From Eledone cirrhosa (lineage: Eukaryota): DNA of 64,000 nt. The stretch is from contig OZ024743.1 in the NCBI GenBank assembly GCA_964016885.1, positions 9,176,001 through 9,240,000 on the forward strand, in the 5' to 3' direction. Position numbers and translations under genes: made by a program. This document shows, piece by piece, positions 3,865 to 55,400 of this stretch. Below the pieces are notes generated by a model that did no database searches, was not told the DNA's origin, and was given only the letters and a program-made list of their open reading frames with translations. Each line of letters starts with the position of its first letter. Within the stretch, counting starts at the first letter, position 1.

Positions 3865-3942
3865 ATACAAATATATTACACAGAGAGAAGTGTGTTACAC
3901 AGTGAGATGTAACACACTTCTCTCTGTGTAATATATTTGTAT
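3865..3942. repeat. Perfect 35-bp-stem hairpin next to (TA)n
   Basis: atacaaatatattacacagagagaagtgtgttaca / cagtgaga / tgtaacacacttctctctgtgtaatatatttgtat. Confidence 0.9.
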
Positions 3943-4042
3943 TTGTATATTTGTATTTGAGCTAAGATGAAAATTCTCTGTTCTTCTTTGAGCTAATATT
4001 ATTATTACTGTGAAATGCGGAATACTCTAATTCCGATCCTTG

Positions 4043-4172
4043 TATATATATATATATATATATATATATATATATATATATGTGTGTGTGTGTGTGTGTG
4101 TGTGTGTGTGTGTGTGTGTGTGTGTGTGTGTGTGTGTGTGTGTGTGTGTGTGTGTGTGTGTGCGTGTGTGTG
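4043..4172. repeat. (TA)n(TG)n compound microsatellite
   Basis: Directly visible. Confidence 0.95.
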
Positions 4173-4211
4173 TTTATATAGGAACAAGACGTTGAAAATG
4201 CAATTTGAGAG

Positions 4212-4279
4212 GGAGAGCTGTGTGGCTATGTGGTGATATGTCTCGCATGTCATCTTTCCACATAGCCACACAGCTCTCC
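4212..4279. repeat. 22-bp-stem inverted repeat
   Basis: ggagagctgtgtggctatgtgg ... ccacatagccacacagctctcc. Confidence 0.9.
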
Positions 4280-5194
4280 ATCTTACTTAATATTTGAACA
4301 TCATTCAAACGTGAAACCAGTAATGTTATTATTAATAAATCTTAAATACTCAAATTGCATTTCCAACTTCTTTTACCCGTGTAGGATTAAAAAAAATATT
4401 TTCTTATGTATATGTTAACGGAGAAGAAGAGGTAAGTCAGCAAAAATGGTGTGCTGTCGAACAGATGTAATGTCTGTTTTATTCATCTACATTTTGAGCT
4501 CCAATCTGCTCTTAACGACATTAGGTTTAATCCGCACGAGAATGATAAAATTTCATCTGGATTTAAATTAACTGTAATTTTACAAATGTTTACAGAGAAT
4601 AGAGAGAATATATACCGATTAACTACAAACAGAATATATGTAACAATATTGTGTATTCACTGTGGGGAGTGGATGTTATATCTTTGACAGGAGCTGTAGG
4701 ATGTTTGATACTTAACGGTTCTTATACTATTTAATCTATAACAGAATATGGTTCACTTGAAGGCGTGGAGTTACATAAACAACTGATTTCCTCTCCTAGT
4801 ATTGGTAATATAATACAGTGAAGTGTAGTCCTACTTTTGTCGAGCAGCAGTGAAAGTGTTTTGTCCTTAATCACACCAGCTGAAAAGAATGTGTGAGAAT
4901 ATGTCCTCATCTTTTACATTTTCTTTCAATTTTTAAATCGAATTAGAATATTTCCCCATATGCTTTTTTTTTTTTATAGAATAAGGCACTCCATCTATTC
5001 TGTGATTTGTTAAGATATGAGATGCAATGATTTGAAGCAGTTTTTATTTAGTTCATTGTTATATATTTTAAATTCCATGTAATCTGACATATAGCTATTT
5101 GAGCCAATGTGGGAACATCTACGTAGTCAAACATCATGTTAGAAATAGTTGATCAAATACTTTCATAACCCATTATGCATGCATGATGCCGTAA

Positions 5195-5520
5195 CTACCG
5201 TGGGAGTAGTAAAGGTGCTGTATTGGCATACAGCGTTTCTAGGGCAGTTTGTAAACCTGGTGGATCCGATCGCCTCTCCAGGTTTGGATACATAAGATTT
5301 CTTCCAGAGAAAGATGGGGAGGGAAAGAATGGATATGAGAAAGAGATATAGAGTAAGAATCGACCCCAGTACCTGACTGGTTCTTTTTTATATTGACCTC
5401 GAATGGATAAAAGGCAAAGTTGATCTCGGTGGGATTTGAACTCAAGGAGCAGAAAGCCGAAATGAATACCGCAAAGCATTTTATCCGACGTTCTAATGAC
5501 TCTACCAATTCACCGCCTTA
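5195..5520 (-). mobile_element. SINE family A, long-tail variant
   Basis: Core aaggcaaagttgatctcggtgggatttgaactca, ending in ccaattcaccgcctta (tRNA-like head on minus strand). Confidence 0.75.
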
Positions 5521-5642
5521 TAACACATTATACTGTCTTAGAAAAATAAAAAAATAAAGACTGGATAATGTCGTCGAAGATAAACTCTGAAAAGGGTCAC
5601 GCATTGAATGCCTTTGGTAATCATACGTTGGCTAAATTGGTC

Positions 5643-51874: not shown

Positions 51875-52065
51875 TGGCACAAGGCCAGCAATTATCCCAG
51901 TGCATTACTGGTGCTTTATTCTATCGACCCCGTAAGGATGAAAGGCAAAGTTAAAATCCCGCTGAGGTTAACTTTGCCTTTCAACCTTACGGGTTCGATA
52001 AAATAAAGCACTAGTAACACACAGGGATAATTGCTGGCCTTGTTCCAAAAGTAGAAACAATTATT
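51875..52065. mobile_element. Head-to-head inverted SINE family A pair (foldback)
   Basis: 51875-51954 is the near reverse complement of 51968-52047, 13-nt spacer. Confidence 0.85.
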
Positions 52066-52182
52066 TTATTATCTCAGTTTTAAAGATAGGAATATCGACG
52101 GGTATACGACACTTTCGAAAGAATAATGTGTGCTGCTGATTTAAAAGTTAGATGATAAAAATAGAAAAGTTTATTAAGCAAC

Positions 52183-52322
52183 CTGAATTGCTTGAAAAAA
52201 ACTCTGTTGTAACGGAGTACATTGTGTTACAGGAATTCAGACCAGATTTCCATTTTGAGTGTATCTTCTTTCCTTTCACTATACTTAGAGCCCCAGAAAA
52301 TAGTCGTGCCCATTGATCTTCC
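52183..52322 (-). CDS. Host-gene exon B: EDQWARLFSGALSIVKGKKIHSKWKSGLNSCNTMYSVTTEFFSSNS
   Basis: cttggttAG acceptor, cag/GTtgc donor, phase 2 to 1. Confidence 0.55.
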
Positions 52323-52483
52323 CTAACCAAGCGTTACAAAGATGTTCGACCTAATGTAAATTTTGATCGTAATGTGCATCTACATTTAATAATCAATGGA
52401 GTACTAAAATGTTCATTACTTATTATATACAATTAGTTATGAGTCTACATTTTTATTTTACTTAAAATTATTAAGGATCTCAC

Positions 52484-52555
52484 CTACTTATGAAGTCCTT
52501 TGAGCTAGAGGTAAATTTCATTTTCTTTGTAACGAGAATGGCGACAAATCTCTCC
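52484..52555 (-). CDS. Host-gene exon A: ERFVAILVTKKMKFTSSSKDFIS(R)
   Basis: tctttatAG acceptor, ag/GTgaga donor, phase 2 to 2. Confidence 0.5.
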
Positions 52556-55213
52556 CTATAAAGATCCAGTTTAGCGGGAGTAACTTATTACACGGGGAAA
52601 AACTATGCCAATCTGGGATACTTACAATATAATGCTTTAGAAGATATCTAATGTTGGTTTAAAAACCTTTGTTTCTTTATCTGTCTTCTCTATGTTAATT
52701 GTAGATATAGATGAAAACCAAATATACTACGTCGTTGGTTGAACAAGTATTTTGCGCTCTAAAACACCTACAATGCCTTTAAAAGTAGGAAGATTTGATT
52801 TGAGATTTATGATTATATGACCAATTTAGGAAGATAAATAGATCAAAATAATGGTGGACTAGACAATAGTTAAAAATCACCAGAAATATTTTTTTAGTCC
52901 CCTGCCTCTGAGCTACATGGAAGCTCTAATATGTAATTTTATGAAGAGAAAGCAATCTTCCTTTGGAACTGTCTTATATATGTTTATTTTTAATATATCT
53001 CACTTCAGTTATAAATATGAGATATTGTACCTCTCTAAAAAATCAATGTATTTCTCATATTTCTATTCCTTATGTTGTTTTTCAAATCTACATTATCGAC
53101 GTTTGAAAACTGCGATTTTATATGCAGTTTAAGATGGTCTGAAAAAGAAAGCTGATATATCTTCTGATGTTAAATAATTAGAGTAAAGTGTGATGATTGG
53201 CAGAAGTGCATTACTGGAAAAAATATTAATGCATTCTCCATGTTTGTGCGTTAGGGGTTAGAGTCCATTAAGATATGGTTATCTTAAAAAATAAGCATAG
53301 TGTTTTTTTTGTCAGTTCTAAAGACTGTGCAAGATATTAGTATTCGTATATTAATAGATGCGATATGTTTTTAAAAGAGTTCAATGCAACGGTAGCTTGC
53401 CGTAGTGATATCTAATACTTCAGAATACCATCTTTTCTTACAATGCTAGCTGCCATATTCTCAATTCTCAAGAACAATATTGCAAATTGACTGATGACGT
53501 TGCAATAGTTTCTCCACTTAGAAAGATGTTGGATAATTTCTACATGGCAGATATATAAAAGAAGACACTTCCATTTGTTCTTGGACGGCTTATATTATTT
53601 CTGTAATAAAATATCACATCGGTACTCAAAAAGGTTACTAGATGCTTTAAAATTCCCCCAACAGTGATGGAAAAATATCGCATTCGAAATGAATATAGAA
53701 AACCTTTAAGAATTAATCTTGAAAATGTAAGCAAAATATATTTACACGACTTAAACAAAAATTAAATGCATGTATAAAACATTGAAGCGGCAAAATTATG
53801 CTTTTATTTGATTAGAACCTCTCGATTGTAATATTTTCATATCCCGAAACATAAACTCTATTTCTAGCCGTGGAATTCTTATTGCAAATAAGTTAAATGA
53901 CATATGAAATCCAAGAACCCAGTCTTCGATAGTGTAATGGTTCTGATAATATTTATGAAGTATTTAATTGTAAAACATCACCTGACACTAAAGGGAAATT
54001 TTGTGATTTGACTCATTTGCATGTTGTCTGATCAGACACTAGATATTGCTCCTACATATACCAGAATGACTAGAGTGACCAACAAATAAAATGATCACTT
54101 TTACATAGTTTCATGATTGACATCTCTTATTTGCAAAGATCATGACCAATGTTTTCCAGATTTATAAGTGAAAGTCAGTGTATCAATGAAAAACCGACTC
54201 TTGCTCCTTGATTTCTCATTTTACTTCTTCAACATAGCAATGATTCCACAAACGGCATGAACATTTAAAATTAAAAATACAGCAAATTAACCTCGCTATT
54301 TCTTCCTTAATTTTACCAACCTTCATAGTCTATATTTTAACTGTAACATCACTCATCATCTTTTTCAGCAACACCATTAATCAACACATTTATATCTGTA
54401 TGCTTACACTGACTTCATATTCAAAATACAAATCAGTTGATACGTATTACGCACAAATGTCACTTCACATTAAACAATGACCTACTTTTAGAAGGTGGAA
54501 ATTGTATCAAATGGTCATTTGGGAAAATATTTATCTAAACCATGAAGCAATTTCCAAATGATGTATATATTTTCAAATAAACATTTATACAGATCATTTC
54601 CCTTTTTCACATATTGGAAATACATTTCGAATAGCTTCTAATTCTTTACGAAGAACTCGAATTTCGCTACCTCCTATGAATACATACAAACACAAACACA
54701 TACACACACATACACACACACACACACACACACACATTTATACCCCCTCCACACACACACACATGTATACGATTACATAAATAGAACCCTTGTTGGTGTT
54801 GAAGATTATTCCAGCTATTTCATTAACTGACTCTCTAGTGTACGTAGCTGAGAACTACACAGATATATATACCTATGCTGTGATTTGTAGGCTGAATCAC
54901 GAATTTTGTGACAAGGCTGGCTCCTTGAATTACGGGTATAATCCGTATTGTATTTGTAAATAAGTGATTATTTTACAGTCCCTTGCACCCTTAATGGCAG
55001 TCTCAAGCAGAAGTCGACTCTTTGAATTATAGGGACAATTGATCTAATTTCCCTCACAAGGCTTCGGTAGACCTGACGACCTGAAGCTACAGTTTAAGGC
55101 ACTTATACGTTTATACGTCTCTCTCTCTCTCTCTCTCTCTCTCTCTCTCTCTCTCTCTCTCTCTATATATATATATATATATATATATATATATATATAT
55201 ATATATATATATA

Positions 55214-55400
55214 TAGAAGTAGTAACACAGCAGTTAGTTCACCATACCGAGAAAAAATGTTTCACCTTATGCGGATCTTCTGCTCGGATTGGTCCGCATA
55301 AGGTGAAACAATTGTTCTCGGTATGGTGAACTAACTGCTGTGTTACTACTTCTACCAAATTCGTCCCATGGGCTGAGTGCTCTACCACTACGAATATTAC
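55214..55400 (+). mobile_element. Short PLE-end-like insertion with a 62-bp snap-back hairpin and hammerhead 3' half
   Basis: Stem 55214-55275/55293-55354 (2 mismatches); GAAAC-aatt-GTT motif; (CT)n(TA)n on both sides. Confidence 0.7.

Follow-up and report, generated by a model that had tools for sequence, protein, structure and literature searches.

Hydra-clade PLEs, whose hosts are aquatic invertebrates including Mollusca, are described in the accessible text of Craig et al. (2021, PMC8557442) as having one ORF with RT plus GIY-YIG at its C-terminus, a hammerhead in the pLTR, (TA)n targets and the motifs RW[KR], DKT, CxCx5C, CxxC..E and N..CxH, and the elements analysed here are alike in these respects. 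They differ in that family A, the largest of ours, is about 3.5 kb long, with a 1.2-kb 3' UTR, a hammerhead core of U3-A8 or C3/A8 type and a 56-nt stem II; in addition, most copies here are ORF-less palindromes of 60-140 nt, which the available portion of that article does not mention. The inverted 5' pLTRs of other PLEs (PMC3846280; PMC8557442, Fig. 2) are likewise head-to-head inverted, 5'-truncated copies with a one-sided tail and microhomology joints. As far as the available parts of both sources go, they cap ORF-bearing copies and are ascribed to self-priming on an antisense template, an idea already proposed for PLE palindromes in PMC3846280, whereas here the structure makes up the entire insertion and recurs in tens of thousands of copies, with tails of up to 80-180 nt and arm lengths which argue for two RNA-templated cDNAs. 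How inverted ends and one-sided tails arise is posed as an unsolved question in the same parts of both sources.

In vitro, the PLE protein of Poseidon PAc cuts and extends both target strands, two sites within the RNA serve as starts of reverse transcription and bound the tail, and hammerhead cleavage is dispensable, a dimer being predicted (Frangieh et al., 2024, PMC11167929, main text). Two internal start sites and the cutting and extension of both strands have their parallel here; however, PAc belongs to a different clade, its start sites differ from ours, which are located within the 5' UTR, at TA dinucleotides that match the target, and the main text contains neither the joining of two cDNAs nor run-off palindromes. 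As presented there, the in vitro work stops before the second cDNA is joined, and the young insertions described below offer a countable test. Animal non-LTR retrozymes (bioRxiv 10.64898/2026.07.22.740005) resemble our families 3 and 4, which are 322- and ~480-bp tandem type I hammerhead units with PLE-like ends, whereas in families A and 2 the short palindromes neither consist of tandem monomers nor start at the cleavage site. The available parts of PMC6962438 and PMC11703226 contain nothing on such structures. A pLTR-internal promoter with an Inr has been reported for Penelope and rotifer PLEs. Inverted pLTRs, tails and (TA)n targeting are already published; mass-produced ORF-less palindromes and their reading as run-off products were not found in the literature searched. 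When L1 insertions become 5'-inverted by twin priming, cDNA synthesis on the element RNA is primed from either target end and the products are joined at microhomologies; L1 arms cover non-overlapping parts of the RNA, whereas the arms found here start from fixed sites and overlap, which gives palindromes.

Head-to-head insertions in the window

The window, that is, the whole stretch of 64,000 nt analysed (contig OZ024743.1, positions 9,176,001-9,240,000, forward strand), contained eight sites at which paired element 3' ends were joined head to head and pointed outward into (TA)n, one arm bearing a tail and the other being tail-less in 8/8 cases. This confirmed the initial annotation as to inverted arms at all eight sites and as to their size, given there as 35 bp to 2 kb and found to be 32 bp to 2 kb. 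An arm end lay within 3 nt of (TA)4+ at seven of the eight (background 5.6%, for either end within 12 nt), the nearest (TA)4+ being 38 nt off at 23339/24685. Eleven local inverted repeats occurred in the repeat-masked window, vs. 0-1 in ten shuffles. All eight sites were affiliated to PLEs (four sites to Hydra-clade families, one to a Neptune-type element and three to non-coding hammerhead tandem units).

At 22.6 kb, a 138-nt tail-bearing arm of family A (22470..22607, minus; (TA)n at 22440-22469) has its 5' end at the A of an Initiator-like TTAGTCC and contains the 3' strand of stem II, GAAA, stem III, the GUC site and an 80-nt tail. It is joined bluntly to a tail-less arm (22608..22663, plus), complementary in 54/54 bases to 22550-22603, which stops in (TA)n at the short priming site (CC-TA). 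Subfamily C of the same family accounts for the 48.8-kb site, with a tail-bearing arm carrying an internal deletion (48747..48842, minus; (TA)n at 48729-48746) and a tail-less arm (48843..48890, plus) running from the A of the parent's TTAGTTC motif to (TA)n. The family 2 site consists of a tail-less arm (55216..55293, minus), ending 3 nt past the A of CCAGTCC, and a tail-bearing arm (55293..55410, plus) followed by (TC)n(TA)n. The longest pair is formed by a 2.0-kb tail-less arm with the C-terminal half of RT and GIY-YIG (27801..29830, minus; (TA)n at 27747-27800) and a tail-bearing arm of the same family (29811..32191, plus; (TA)n from 32192), 97.5% identical to it, about 150 nt longer at its 5' end and with a tail of about 180 nt.

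The Neptune-type element (23283..24648, minus) is 5'-truncated and retains the RT thumb, a Cx2-5CxxC linker before GIY-YIG as in Neptune/Nematis-type PLEs, a pLTR with a CUGAAGA hammerhead core at 23533, and a tail; its 45-nt tail-less arm (24641..24685, plus) is attached through an 8-nt microhomology. In family 3, 38084..38584 (minus), ending near (TA)n, comprises a partial unit broken in the stem II loop and a full unit with a canonical type I hammerhead motif (CUGACGA at 38272), and 38585..38658 (plus) comprises a templated junction insertion and a 63-nt tail-less arm (38596-38658) into (TA)n. A relative at 73-74% identity (40165..40343) keeps no hammerhead part; its tail arm extends on the minus strand to ~40311 and its 32-nt tail-less arm on the plus strand over 40312-40343. 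Family 4 (3865..4042), with (TA)n on either side, has a tail-less minus arm (3865-~3911) and a tail plus arm (to 4042), and its fold falls about 150 nt to the 3' side of the cleavage site in the parent. Like non-LTR retrozymes, families 3 and 4 consist of non-coding units in tandem that each contain a type I hammerhead motif.

Families A and 2 and the 27.8-32 kb element encode RT and then a C-terminal GIY-YIG in a single ORF, and their sequence motifs and (TA)n insertion mark them as probable Hydra-clade PLEs. RWR and DKT (the N-terminal RWK-type motif, and DKT replacing DKG) were present in family A, where they were checked; a CxCx5C linker, with CxxC and CxH around conserved E and N, was found in the 28-kb element and in family 2 (L327, L308), and the linker motifs in family A copies L075 and L092, the third Cys being mutated in L091. 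CCHH was absent by eye from the Hydra-type elements. Atlas neighbours of the Hydra-type ORFs were PF26215 / GIY-YIG; Pfam scans, and a PDB search with an RT fragment, returned nothing significant. A MITE or other class II element was rejected on the tail usually present beyond the repeat at one end, the variable centres and the RT-encoding PLE parent.

The family A parent has the type I order stem I, core, stem II, GAAA, stem III, NUH and stem I. In 10 copies, 89.5% of cells were paired, and two-sided changes affected 3/10 pairs of stem II, figures that are statistically weak because these sequences are related. Its core reads UUGANAA, the known U3-A8 variant (PMC4209133), in most subfamilies, and CUGAGAA, with C3 unpaired with A8, in 99/100 of the subfamily A copies listed. 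A parent with canonical CUGANGA was discarded (13 matches, none of them a parent; 0 in a second search), and five CUGAGGA copies proved to be pattern-selected rarities. Among the 150 Rfam matches listed there was no hammerhead, only sub-threshold miRNA-like matches.

The initial annotation had placed the fold at or just 5' of stem II at four sites (22.6, 38.6, 48.8 and 55.3 kb), with GAAA...NUH retained and CUGANGA lost. Retention of GAAA-stem III-NUH stands at all four (22.6, 48.8, 38.4-38.58 and 55.3 kb) and the fold falls inside the parent's stem II at 22.6 and 48.8 kb, where, however, the parents read UUGANAA or CUGAGAA. The other two differ. At 55.3 kb only the right arm begins at stem II, and the core is not lost, as the left arm runs through it (CAGAAGA, one substitution from CUGAAGA) to 3 nt past the usual stop of the family. 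At 38.6 kb the fold is not where the arms join: the inverted arm begins about 75 nt further 3', behind the templated insertion, and a complete hammerhead motif occurs in the next tandem unit (38272, minus). Folds at 3.9, 40.2, 23.3/24.7 and 27.8-32.0 kb are far from any hammerhead.

Fold points and the Initiator-like motif

Family A contributed 23,730 palindromic junctions genome-wide (21 with a reversed-pattern control) and 41,829 tail arms; 1,129 subfamily-A arms extended to the hammerhead core. Nearly all junctions differ, in line with the earlier claim that PLE pLTR ends are formed anew at each (TA)n insertion on a large scale. Insertion in (TA)n was seen at 30/30 loci inspected. Among the first 100 tail arms listed, 73 were flagged with an abutting inverted arm (one falsely, L118); 60/73 of these inverted arms stop at the common CC-TA site and 58/73 continue into (TA)n. 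In full copies, each of the two end sites is an internal TA dinucleotide located within the 5' UTR.

Arm 5' ends of family A fell at -25..-11 from GAAA, a 15-nt zone, in 53/100 direct and 53/72 inverted arms; the stop rate was 0.10 per nt there vs. 0.004-0.009 elsewhere, with 0 stops in 1,840 nt at risk beyond -57. Entry into stem II brought no excess of stops in this family (0.0045 per nt at -10..-1, equal to background). The edge lies on TTAGTCC/TCAGTCC/TTAGTTC, a motif retained between subfamilies despite the diverged adjacent loop. In family 2 the mode is at CCAGTCC/CCATTAC (19/71 direct and 16/37 flagged inverted arms), upstream of CUGAAGA, and 42/71 arms retain the core; the peak is broad, with 24/71 arms going at least 10 nt past it and 28 ending at least 10 nt short. 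It lies downstream of GCGCATGCGC and CTTCC motifs, whose identities we presume. Family 3 (38 kb) showed no fold-point peak and family 4 (3.9 kb) a weak one at +191..+223 (7/30 direct, 8/19 inverted), the stem II peak being absent from both. Thus, the non-random fold points expected at stem II were borne out sharply in the largest family, whereas the family 2 peak is upstream of the core and two other families are scattered; stalling of RT at the ribozyme, which had been invoked to explain them, is at odds with the unremarkable stem II entry and with a peak that tracks an Initiator-like motif.

Tandem copies, as in L259, run from the core through the edge (+1), the short site (+58) and the tail site (+138) to the ATG (+232). 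The peaks of families A and 2 both coincide with an Initiator-like motif lying upstream of the two priming sites (by about 60-140 nt) and of the ORF (by 230 nt), so the fold point likely marks the mRNA 5' end, which would come from an Initiator inside the pLTR. ORF-start copies L264 and L242 begin at the edge; the hammerhead core is carried by 13/30 ORF-start loci, and 13/30 ORF-start copies reach upstream of the edge, for which read-through RNA or template switching would be needed. Subfamily C lacks the TATA-like box at about -30, and no DPE match was seen by eye in family A. Initiator-like hexamers are short and common.

We consider it rather probable that head-to-head PLE 3'-end insertions in (TA)n are made by twin priming, with the edge as the mRNA 5' end. 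Reverse transcription of element RNA would be primed from both ends of the cut (TA)n target, from one end at the tail site and from the other at the short site, after which the cDNA ends would be linked to each other. With an mRNA starting at the Initiator within the pLTR, the pile-up of arm 5' ends would correspond to the RNA 5' end; priming at the 5'-proximal copy of the two sites would yield run-off cDNAs of about 60 and 140 nt, like retroviral strong-stop DNA, and hence palindromes without an ORF, while priming in the 3' pLTR of read-through RNA may give the rarer long arms. The hammerhead would be a bystander whose stem II, we infer, overlaps the promoter in family A. Copying of the same stretch of one RNA by both arms would require strand displacement, or two RNAs.

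A broader proposal seems to us evenly poised: that a strong-stop-like product is routinely released by Hydra-clade PLEs at either side of a double-strand cut, most insertions thus being perfect DNA hairpins of 50-75 bp of the elements' own making, at least 24,000 (8 per Mb) from one family, which would map the start and both priming sites at base resolution without RNA data, settle PLE inverted ends as twin priming, and provide a genome-wide dsRNA source for editing and small-RNA pathways. The palindromes may be a natural record of how PLEs copy themselves. If the edge is the mRNA start, these elements would yield mainly abortive run-off, and the palindromes would be misread by repeat annotation as MITEs or miRNA hairpins; within any transcript, such a hairpin would be a ready dsRNA substrate.

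Twin priming could also hold with an edge that reflects RNA structure or processing instead of the transcription start (cleavage by a nuclease or pausing of RT in the stem II internal loop, or a splice acceptor with a tiny first exon); we regard this as unlikely. The family A edge does lie just beyond the covarying basal helix of stem II, and its sequence resembles a 3' splice site (pyrimidine tract plus YAG), introns being present in PLE pLTRs (PMC2377424, PMC4209133). However, several junctions retain TTTAG, which would be intronic; subfamilies A and C differ in apical structure with a constant edge motif; and the family 2 peak is 5' of the entire ribozyme core.

Arm lengths and origin of the palindromes

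Twenty long pairs were chosen from the listed subfamily-A arms, 16 of them with clean tail/short junctions. In 9/16 the tail-less arm extended further, by 0.6-2.6 kb and in L227 by 3.1 kb; in the other 7/16 the tail arm did. In short copies the inverted arm reached at least 20 nt further 5' in 16/72 and had little or no overlap in 5/72; 36/72 family A hairpins were symmetric within 4 nt. Because the tail-less arm is longer in 9/16 long pairs, neither arm was copied from the other, and each must have had an RNA template. Two RNA-templated cDNAs are thus favoured over self-priming by these young insertions, which number tens of thousands.

The initial annotation had instead proposed, in line with the self-priming idea of PMC3846280, that RT stalls at the hammerhead and the cDNA snaps back, serves as its own template and becomes joined to (TA)n. 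We judge this quite improbable, and the mechanism was mostly unsupported. The near-symmetry of half the family A hairpins would arise by this route as well, and arms of a pair share subfamily variants, matching within 1 mismatch over 30 nt in 32/43 pairs vs. 8.9 expected, which suggests that a single source RNA or locus supplied both in most cases. Some junctions carry short local fold-backs (12 bp at 29819-29845, in the 27.8-32.0 kb pair), and these fit a minor role of self-priming during joining. Nevertheless, a copy of a tail-less cDNA can neither hold a tail nor go further 5' than its template, and snap-back of one cDNA cannot yield a tail arm shorter than its partner, as in the 9/16 pairs above. 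The inverted arm, held to copy the element's own downstream sequence, is often no such copy. Natural stem II was rejected as the snap-back primer, since hairpin centres lack the parent's 5' strand and loop, their sequence being that of the 3' strand in reverse complement; stops are not in excess at stem II entry, and three other families lack a stem II peak. The fixed end site of the second arm (60/73) would also go unexplained, whereas it matches the second start site given for the in vitro reaction in the main text of PMC11167929.

Twin priming is further compared with transposition of a few palindromic master copies as units, in the manner of MITEs or SINEs, their centres being later reshaped by cruciform breakage and repair. 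At least seven identical 193-bp copies, and 40 at 99-100%, would suit this, but the search behind these figures was selective for identity with the query; a reading of the hairpin as an inherited unit, suggested by the 40 near-identical copies, was dropped as the search had picked one junction type. Palindrome centres are known to be unstable. Even so, nearly all centres differ in unselected samples (19 distinct among 22 parsable junctions), with arms only 0-3% diverged; junction overlaps of 0-7 nt or templated insertions differ from copy to copy; tail/short, tail/tail and short/short forms coexist; and each subfamily examined has its own long ORF-bearing parent, so that we hold master copies to be very improbable. 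L049 was abandoned as a parent reference, its upstream 524 nt being an inverted arm. Perfect palindromes are a known artefact of long-read and amplification work, yet an assembly or library origin is largely excluded, with hardly any probability left to it, by the fixed biological end points, subfamily structure and (TA)n flanks and by the recurrence, in contigs and in independent short-read runs, of strand-switch joints at this same edge.

Hairpins were present in raw reads, as had been anticipated: RAD-seq reads contained strand-switch joints at L259 1269-1273 (edge at 1270) and (TA)n loose ends at both priming sites, read ends near AATT (22600; L259 1277) being excluded as possible restriction ends. 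Cross-family joints were rare, which speaks against the twin-priming reading: one, interrupted by a TA run, was found vs. 247 same-family alignment pairs, and the five from other searches had been selected for. A search using window-private mutations matched two copies.

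Paired arms in the window and in raw reads

Inverted arms were found, by masked self-comparison of the window, at all eight sites listed in the initial annotation, and local inverted repeats numbered 11 in the window as compared with 0–1 per shuffle (10 shuffles). The adjacency to (TA)n claimed for these sites was observed at seven of the eight, where an arm end lay within 3 nt of (TA)4+, but not at the remaining one. The outward ends at each site were element 3' ends, with a tail on one arm and an internal stop on the other. What the annotation claimed about hammerheads at these sites was borne out in part. 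The sites corresponded to a tandem hammerhead unit of ~480 bp at 3.9 kb (family 4), Penelope-like elements (PLEs) of family A, which is of Hydra-clade type, at 22.5 and 48.8 kb, a Neptune-type PLE fragment with a 45-nt partner arm at 23.3–24.7 kb, a Hydra-type PLE pair with 2-kb arms and its junction within the RT gene at 27.8–32.0 kb, a 322-bp tandem hammerhead unit at 38.1–38.66 kb (family 3), a relative of this unit at 40.2 kb, and family 2 at 55.2 kb. Since the tail/short anatomy was common to all sites, the process covers at least six families.

The hairpins were present in raw data. Strand-switch joints occurred at positions 1269–1273 of L259, a locus with tandem full copies of family A whose 5'-end pile-up (the edge) lies at 1270, both in RAD-seq reads and in contigs from other runs; no single read was shown to span an entire window hairpin. 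Reads entering (TA)n at the two priming sites amounted to 2,811 and 8,722, and read depth from the edge to the tail was at least about tenfold that of the flanks. The palindromes are very unlikely to be artefacts.

Ribozyme and arm ends of family A

Family A accounted for 41,829 tail arms genome-wide and for 23,730 palindromic junctions, vs. 21 in the control (loop-blind pattern). A 193-bp element of this family was present in at least 40 copies with 99–100% identity in the 3.0-Gb genome, and (TA)n flanked both sides of the 30 copies fetched. The hammerhead previously proposed was confirmed as a type I motif in the terminal repeat (pLTR) of the parent element, with a stem II of 56 nt, but its core was UUGANAA or CUGAGAA instead of the expected CUGANGA. 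UUGANAA, found in most subfamilies, contains the U3-A8 variant already described (PMC4209133). The core of the young and abundant subfamily A was CUGAGAA in 99 of 100 among the matches listed (1,129 in all), leaving C3/A8 unpaired; this core sequence suggests that hammerhead cleavage may be dispensable for the spread of this subfamily in vivo. Cleavage was dispensable in vitro for a PLE of a different clade (PMC11167929).

Arm ends were analyzed in the first 100 listed tail matches of contig C1 (0–18 Mb). An abutting inverted arm was flagged in 73 of them, one falsely (L118), and three others were visible despite being missed by flagging (two in L137 and one in L188). A common CC-TA end site was shared by 60 of the 73 inverted arms. 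Direct 5' ends, counted from GAAA, fell at 0 or beyond in 31 cases, at −10 to −1 in 3, at −25 to −11 in 53, at −56 to −26 in 3 and beyond −240 in 10, the stop rate per nt being 0.10 inside the peak vs. 0.004–0.009 elsewhere. On its upstream side the peak was bounded by the A of TTAGTCC (−18), and a shoulder lay at −22; the A of this type of edge motif was also the end of the 22.5-kb tail arm and of the 48.8-kb short arm of the window. Junctions were blunt, had a short overlap or carried an insertion of up to 22 nt, and 19 of 22 parsed hairpin centres were distinct, indicating that the fold formed anew with each insertion.

Origin of the two arms

Snap-back copying of a single cDNA, the mechanism initially proposed, was contradicted in nine of 16 long pairs. 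Both arms extended past the core in 20 fetched pairs, 16 of them with clean tail/short junctions; the longer arm was the tail-less one in 9 and the tail arm in 7, with an extreme case (L227) of 3,402 nt for the tail-less arm vs. 300 nt for the tail arm. As a fold-back copy is limited to the sequence of its template, neither arm copies the other in those nine pairs, kilobase deletions after insertion being the exception. Among short copies (n = 72), the arms were symmetric to within 4 nt in 36, whereas the inverted arm extended at least 20 nt further 5' in 16 and the direct arm in 3. Subfamily variants agreed between arms in 32 of 43 cases vs. 8.9 expected (L166 was discordant) and joints between families were rare in unselected samples, thus reflecting a mostly single source for both cDNAs. 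Insertions with ends from two different PLE families occurred at L032, L034, L036, L069 and G000:C9:49569533.

Twin priming, in which both target ends would prime on the element RNA, is the likelier origin of the arms. The two-site, two-strand anatomy of family A agrees with the in vitro PLE mechanism of PMC11167929, in which two target strands are cut and extended and the tail is bounded by two internal start sites.

Along the tandem full copies at L259, the core is followed by the edge (+1), the short site (+58), the tail site (+138) and the ATG (+232), so that both priming sites are internal, shortly downstream of the edge. Two ORF-start loci, L264 and L242, began at the edge. The edge motif, which we take to match the Initiator consensus, was retained between subfamilies A and C despite divergence of the preceding loop, and a TATA-like box at about −30 was present in subfamilies A and B and absent from C. 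Family 2 comprised 3,295 tail arms, with Hydra motifs and a canonical hammerhead. Its first 71 arms presented a broad peak with the mode at −4 to +9 around CCAGTCC/CCATTAC; CUGAAGA was kept in 42 of them and 7 started in stem II. Upstream of this mode were GCGCATGCGC and CTTCC motifs, presumably typical of promoters. Of the non-coding families, no 5'-end peak was found in family 3, whose 30 arms were scattered between −133 and +98, four of them in stem II, and that of family 4 was weak. From these sequence features we infer that the edge of families A and 2 would be the 5' end of the element mRNA, and that short arms would be run-off cDNAs stopping there. An Initiator-bearing promoter within the pLTR has been reported for Drosophila Penelope and rotifer PLEs.

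The 5' region of family A also formed tandem arrays at L242 (257-nt unit, from the edge to just beyond the ATG) and at G000:C3:214146538-214147927 (~273-nt spacing); tandem arrays of run-off cDNA could possibly represent the birth of retrozyme-like satellites.

Earlier papers already describe inverted pLTRs that bear a tail and a palindrome at the junction (PMC3846280, PMC8557442), self-priming as a proposal for PLE palindromes (PMC3846280), and (TA)n targeting, pLTR hammerheads and nearby ribozyme pairs on opposite strands. In the main texts of mostly non-subscription literature we found no account of ORF-less PLE palindromes in such numbers, of twin priming in PLEs or of run-off at the start site; supplements of PMC8557442 may hold related mollusc families. 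PLE palindromes turn a long-standing mechanistic question into a directly testable one.

Other repeats in the window

Additional inverted repeats appeared at 4208–4283, 17211–17268, 25677–25958 and 17295/19095; those at 17211 and 25677 adjoined TA runs and may be further PLE ends or MITEs. A 28-nt flank duplication (96%; 23255–23282 and 24769–24796), resembling a target-site duplication, bracketed the Neptune-type insertion. In the pLTR of the 28–32 kb element, a motif resembling a hammerhead, in which stem II is very long, was recognized by eye at 31755–31885 (+), its core being CCGAUGA (U4 changed) in both arms; free folding did not recover it. Short repeats bearing CUGANGA adjoined (TA)n at 38929 (−) and 15937 (+), recurred in fetched loci and are probably additional PLE or retrozyme families.

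Window SINEs presumably resemble those of octopods. One of them lay head to head with its own inverted copy at 51875–52047 (86% complementary; nearest (TA)4+ 2.8 kb away), which looks like a 5' inversion from another class of retroelement. A 95/190-bp tandem repeat at 59872–60250, with histone 3' stem-loop-like matches to Rfam Histone3 that fell under the gathering threshold, looks like the decayed ends of histone genes.
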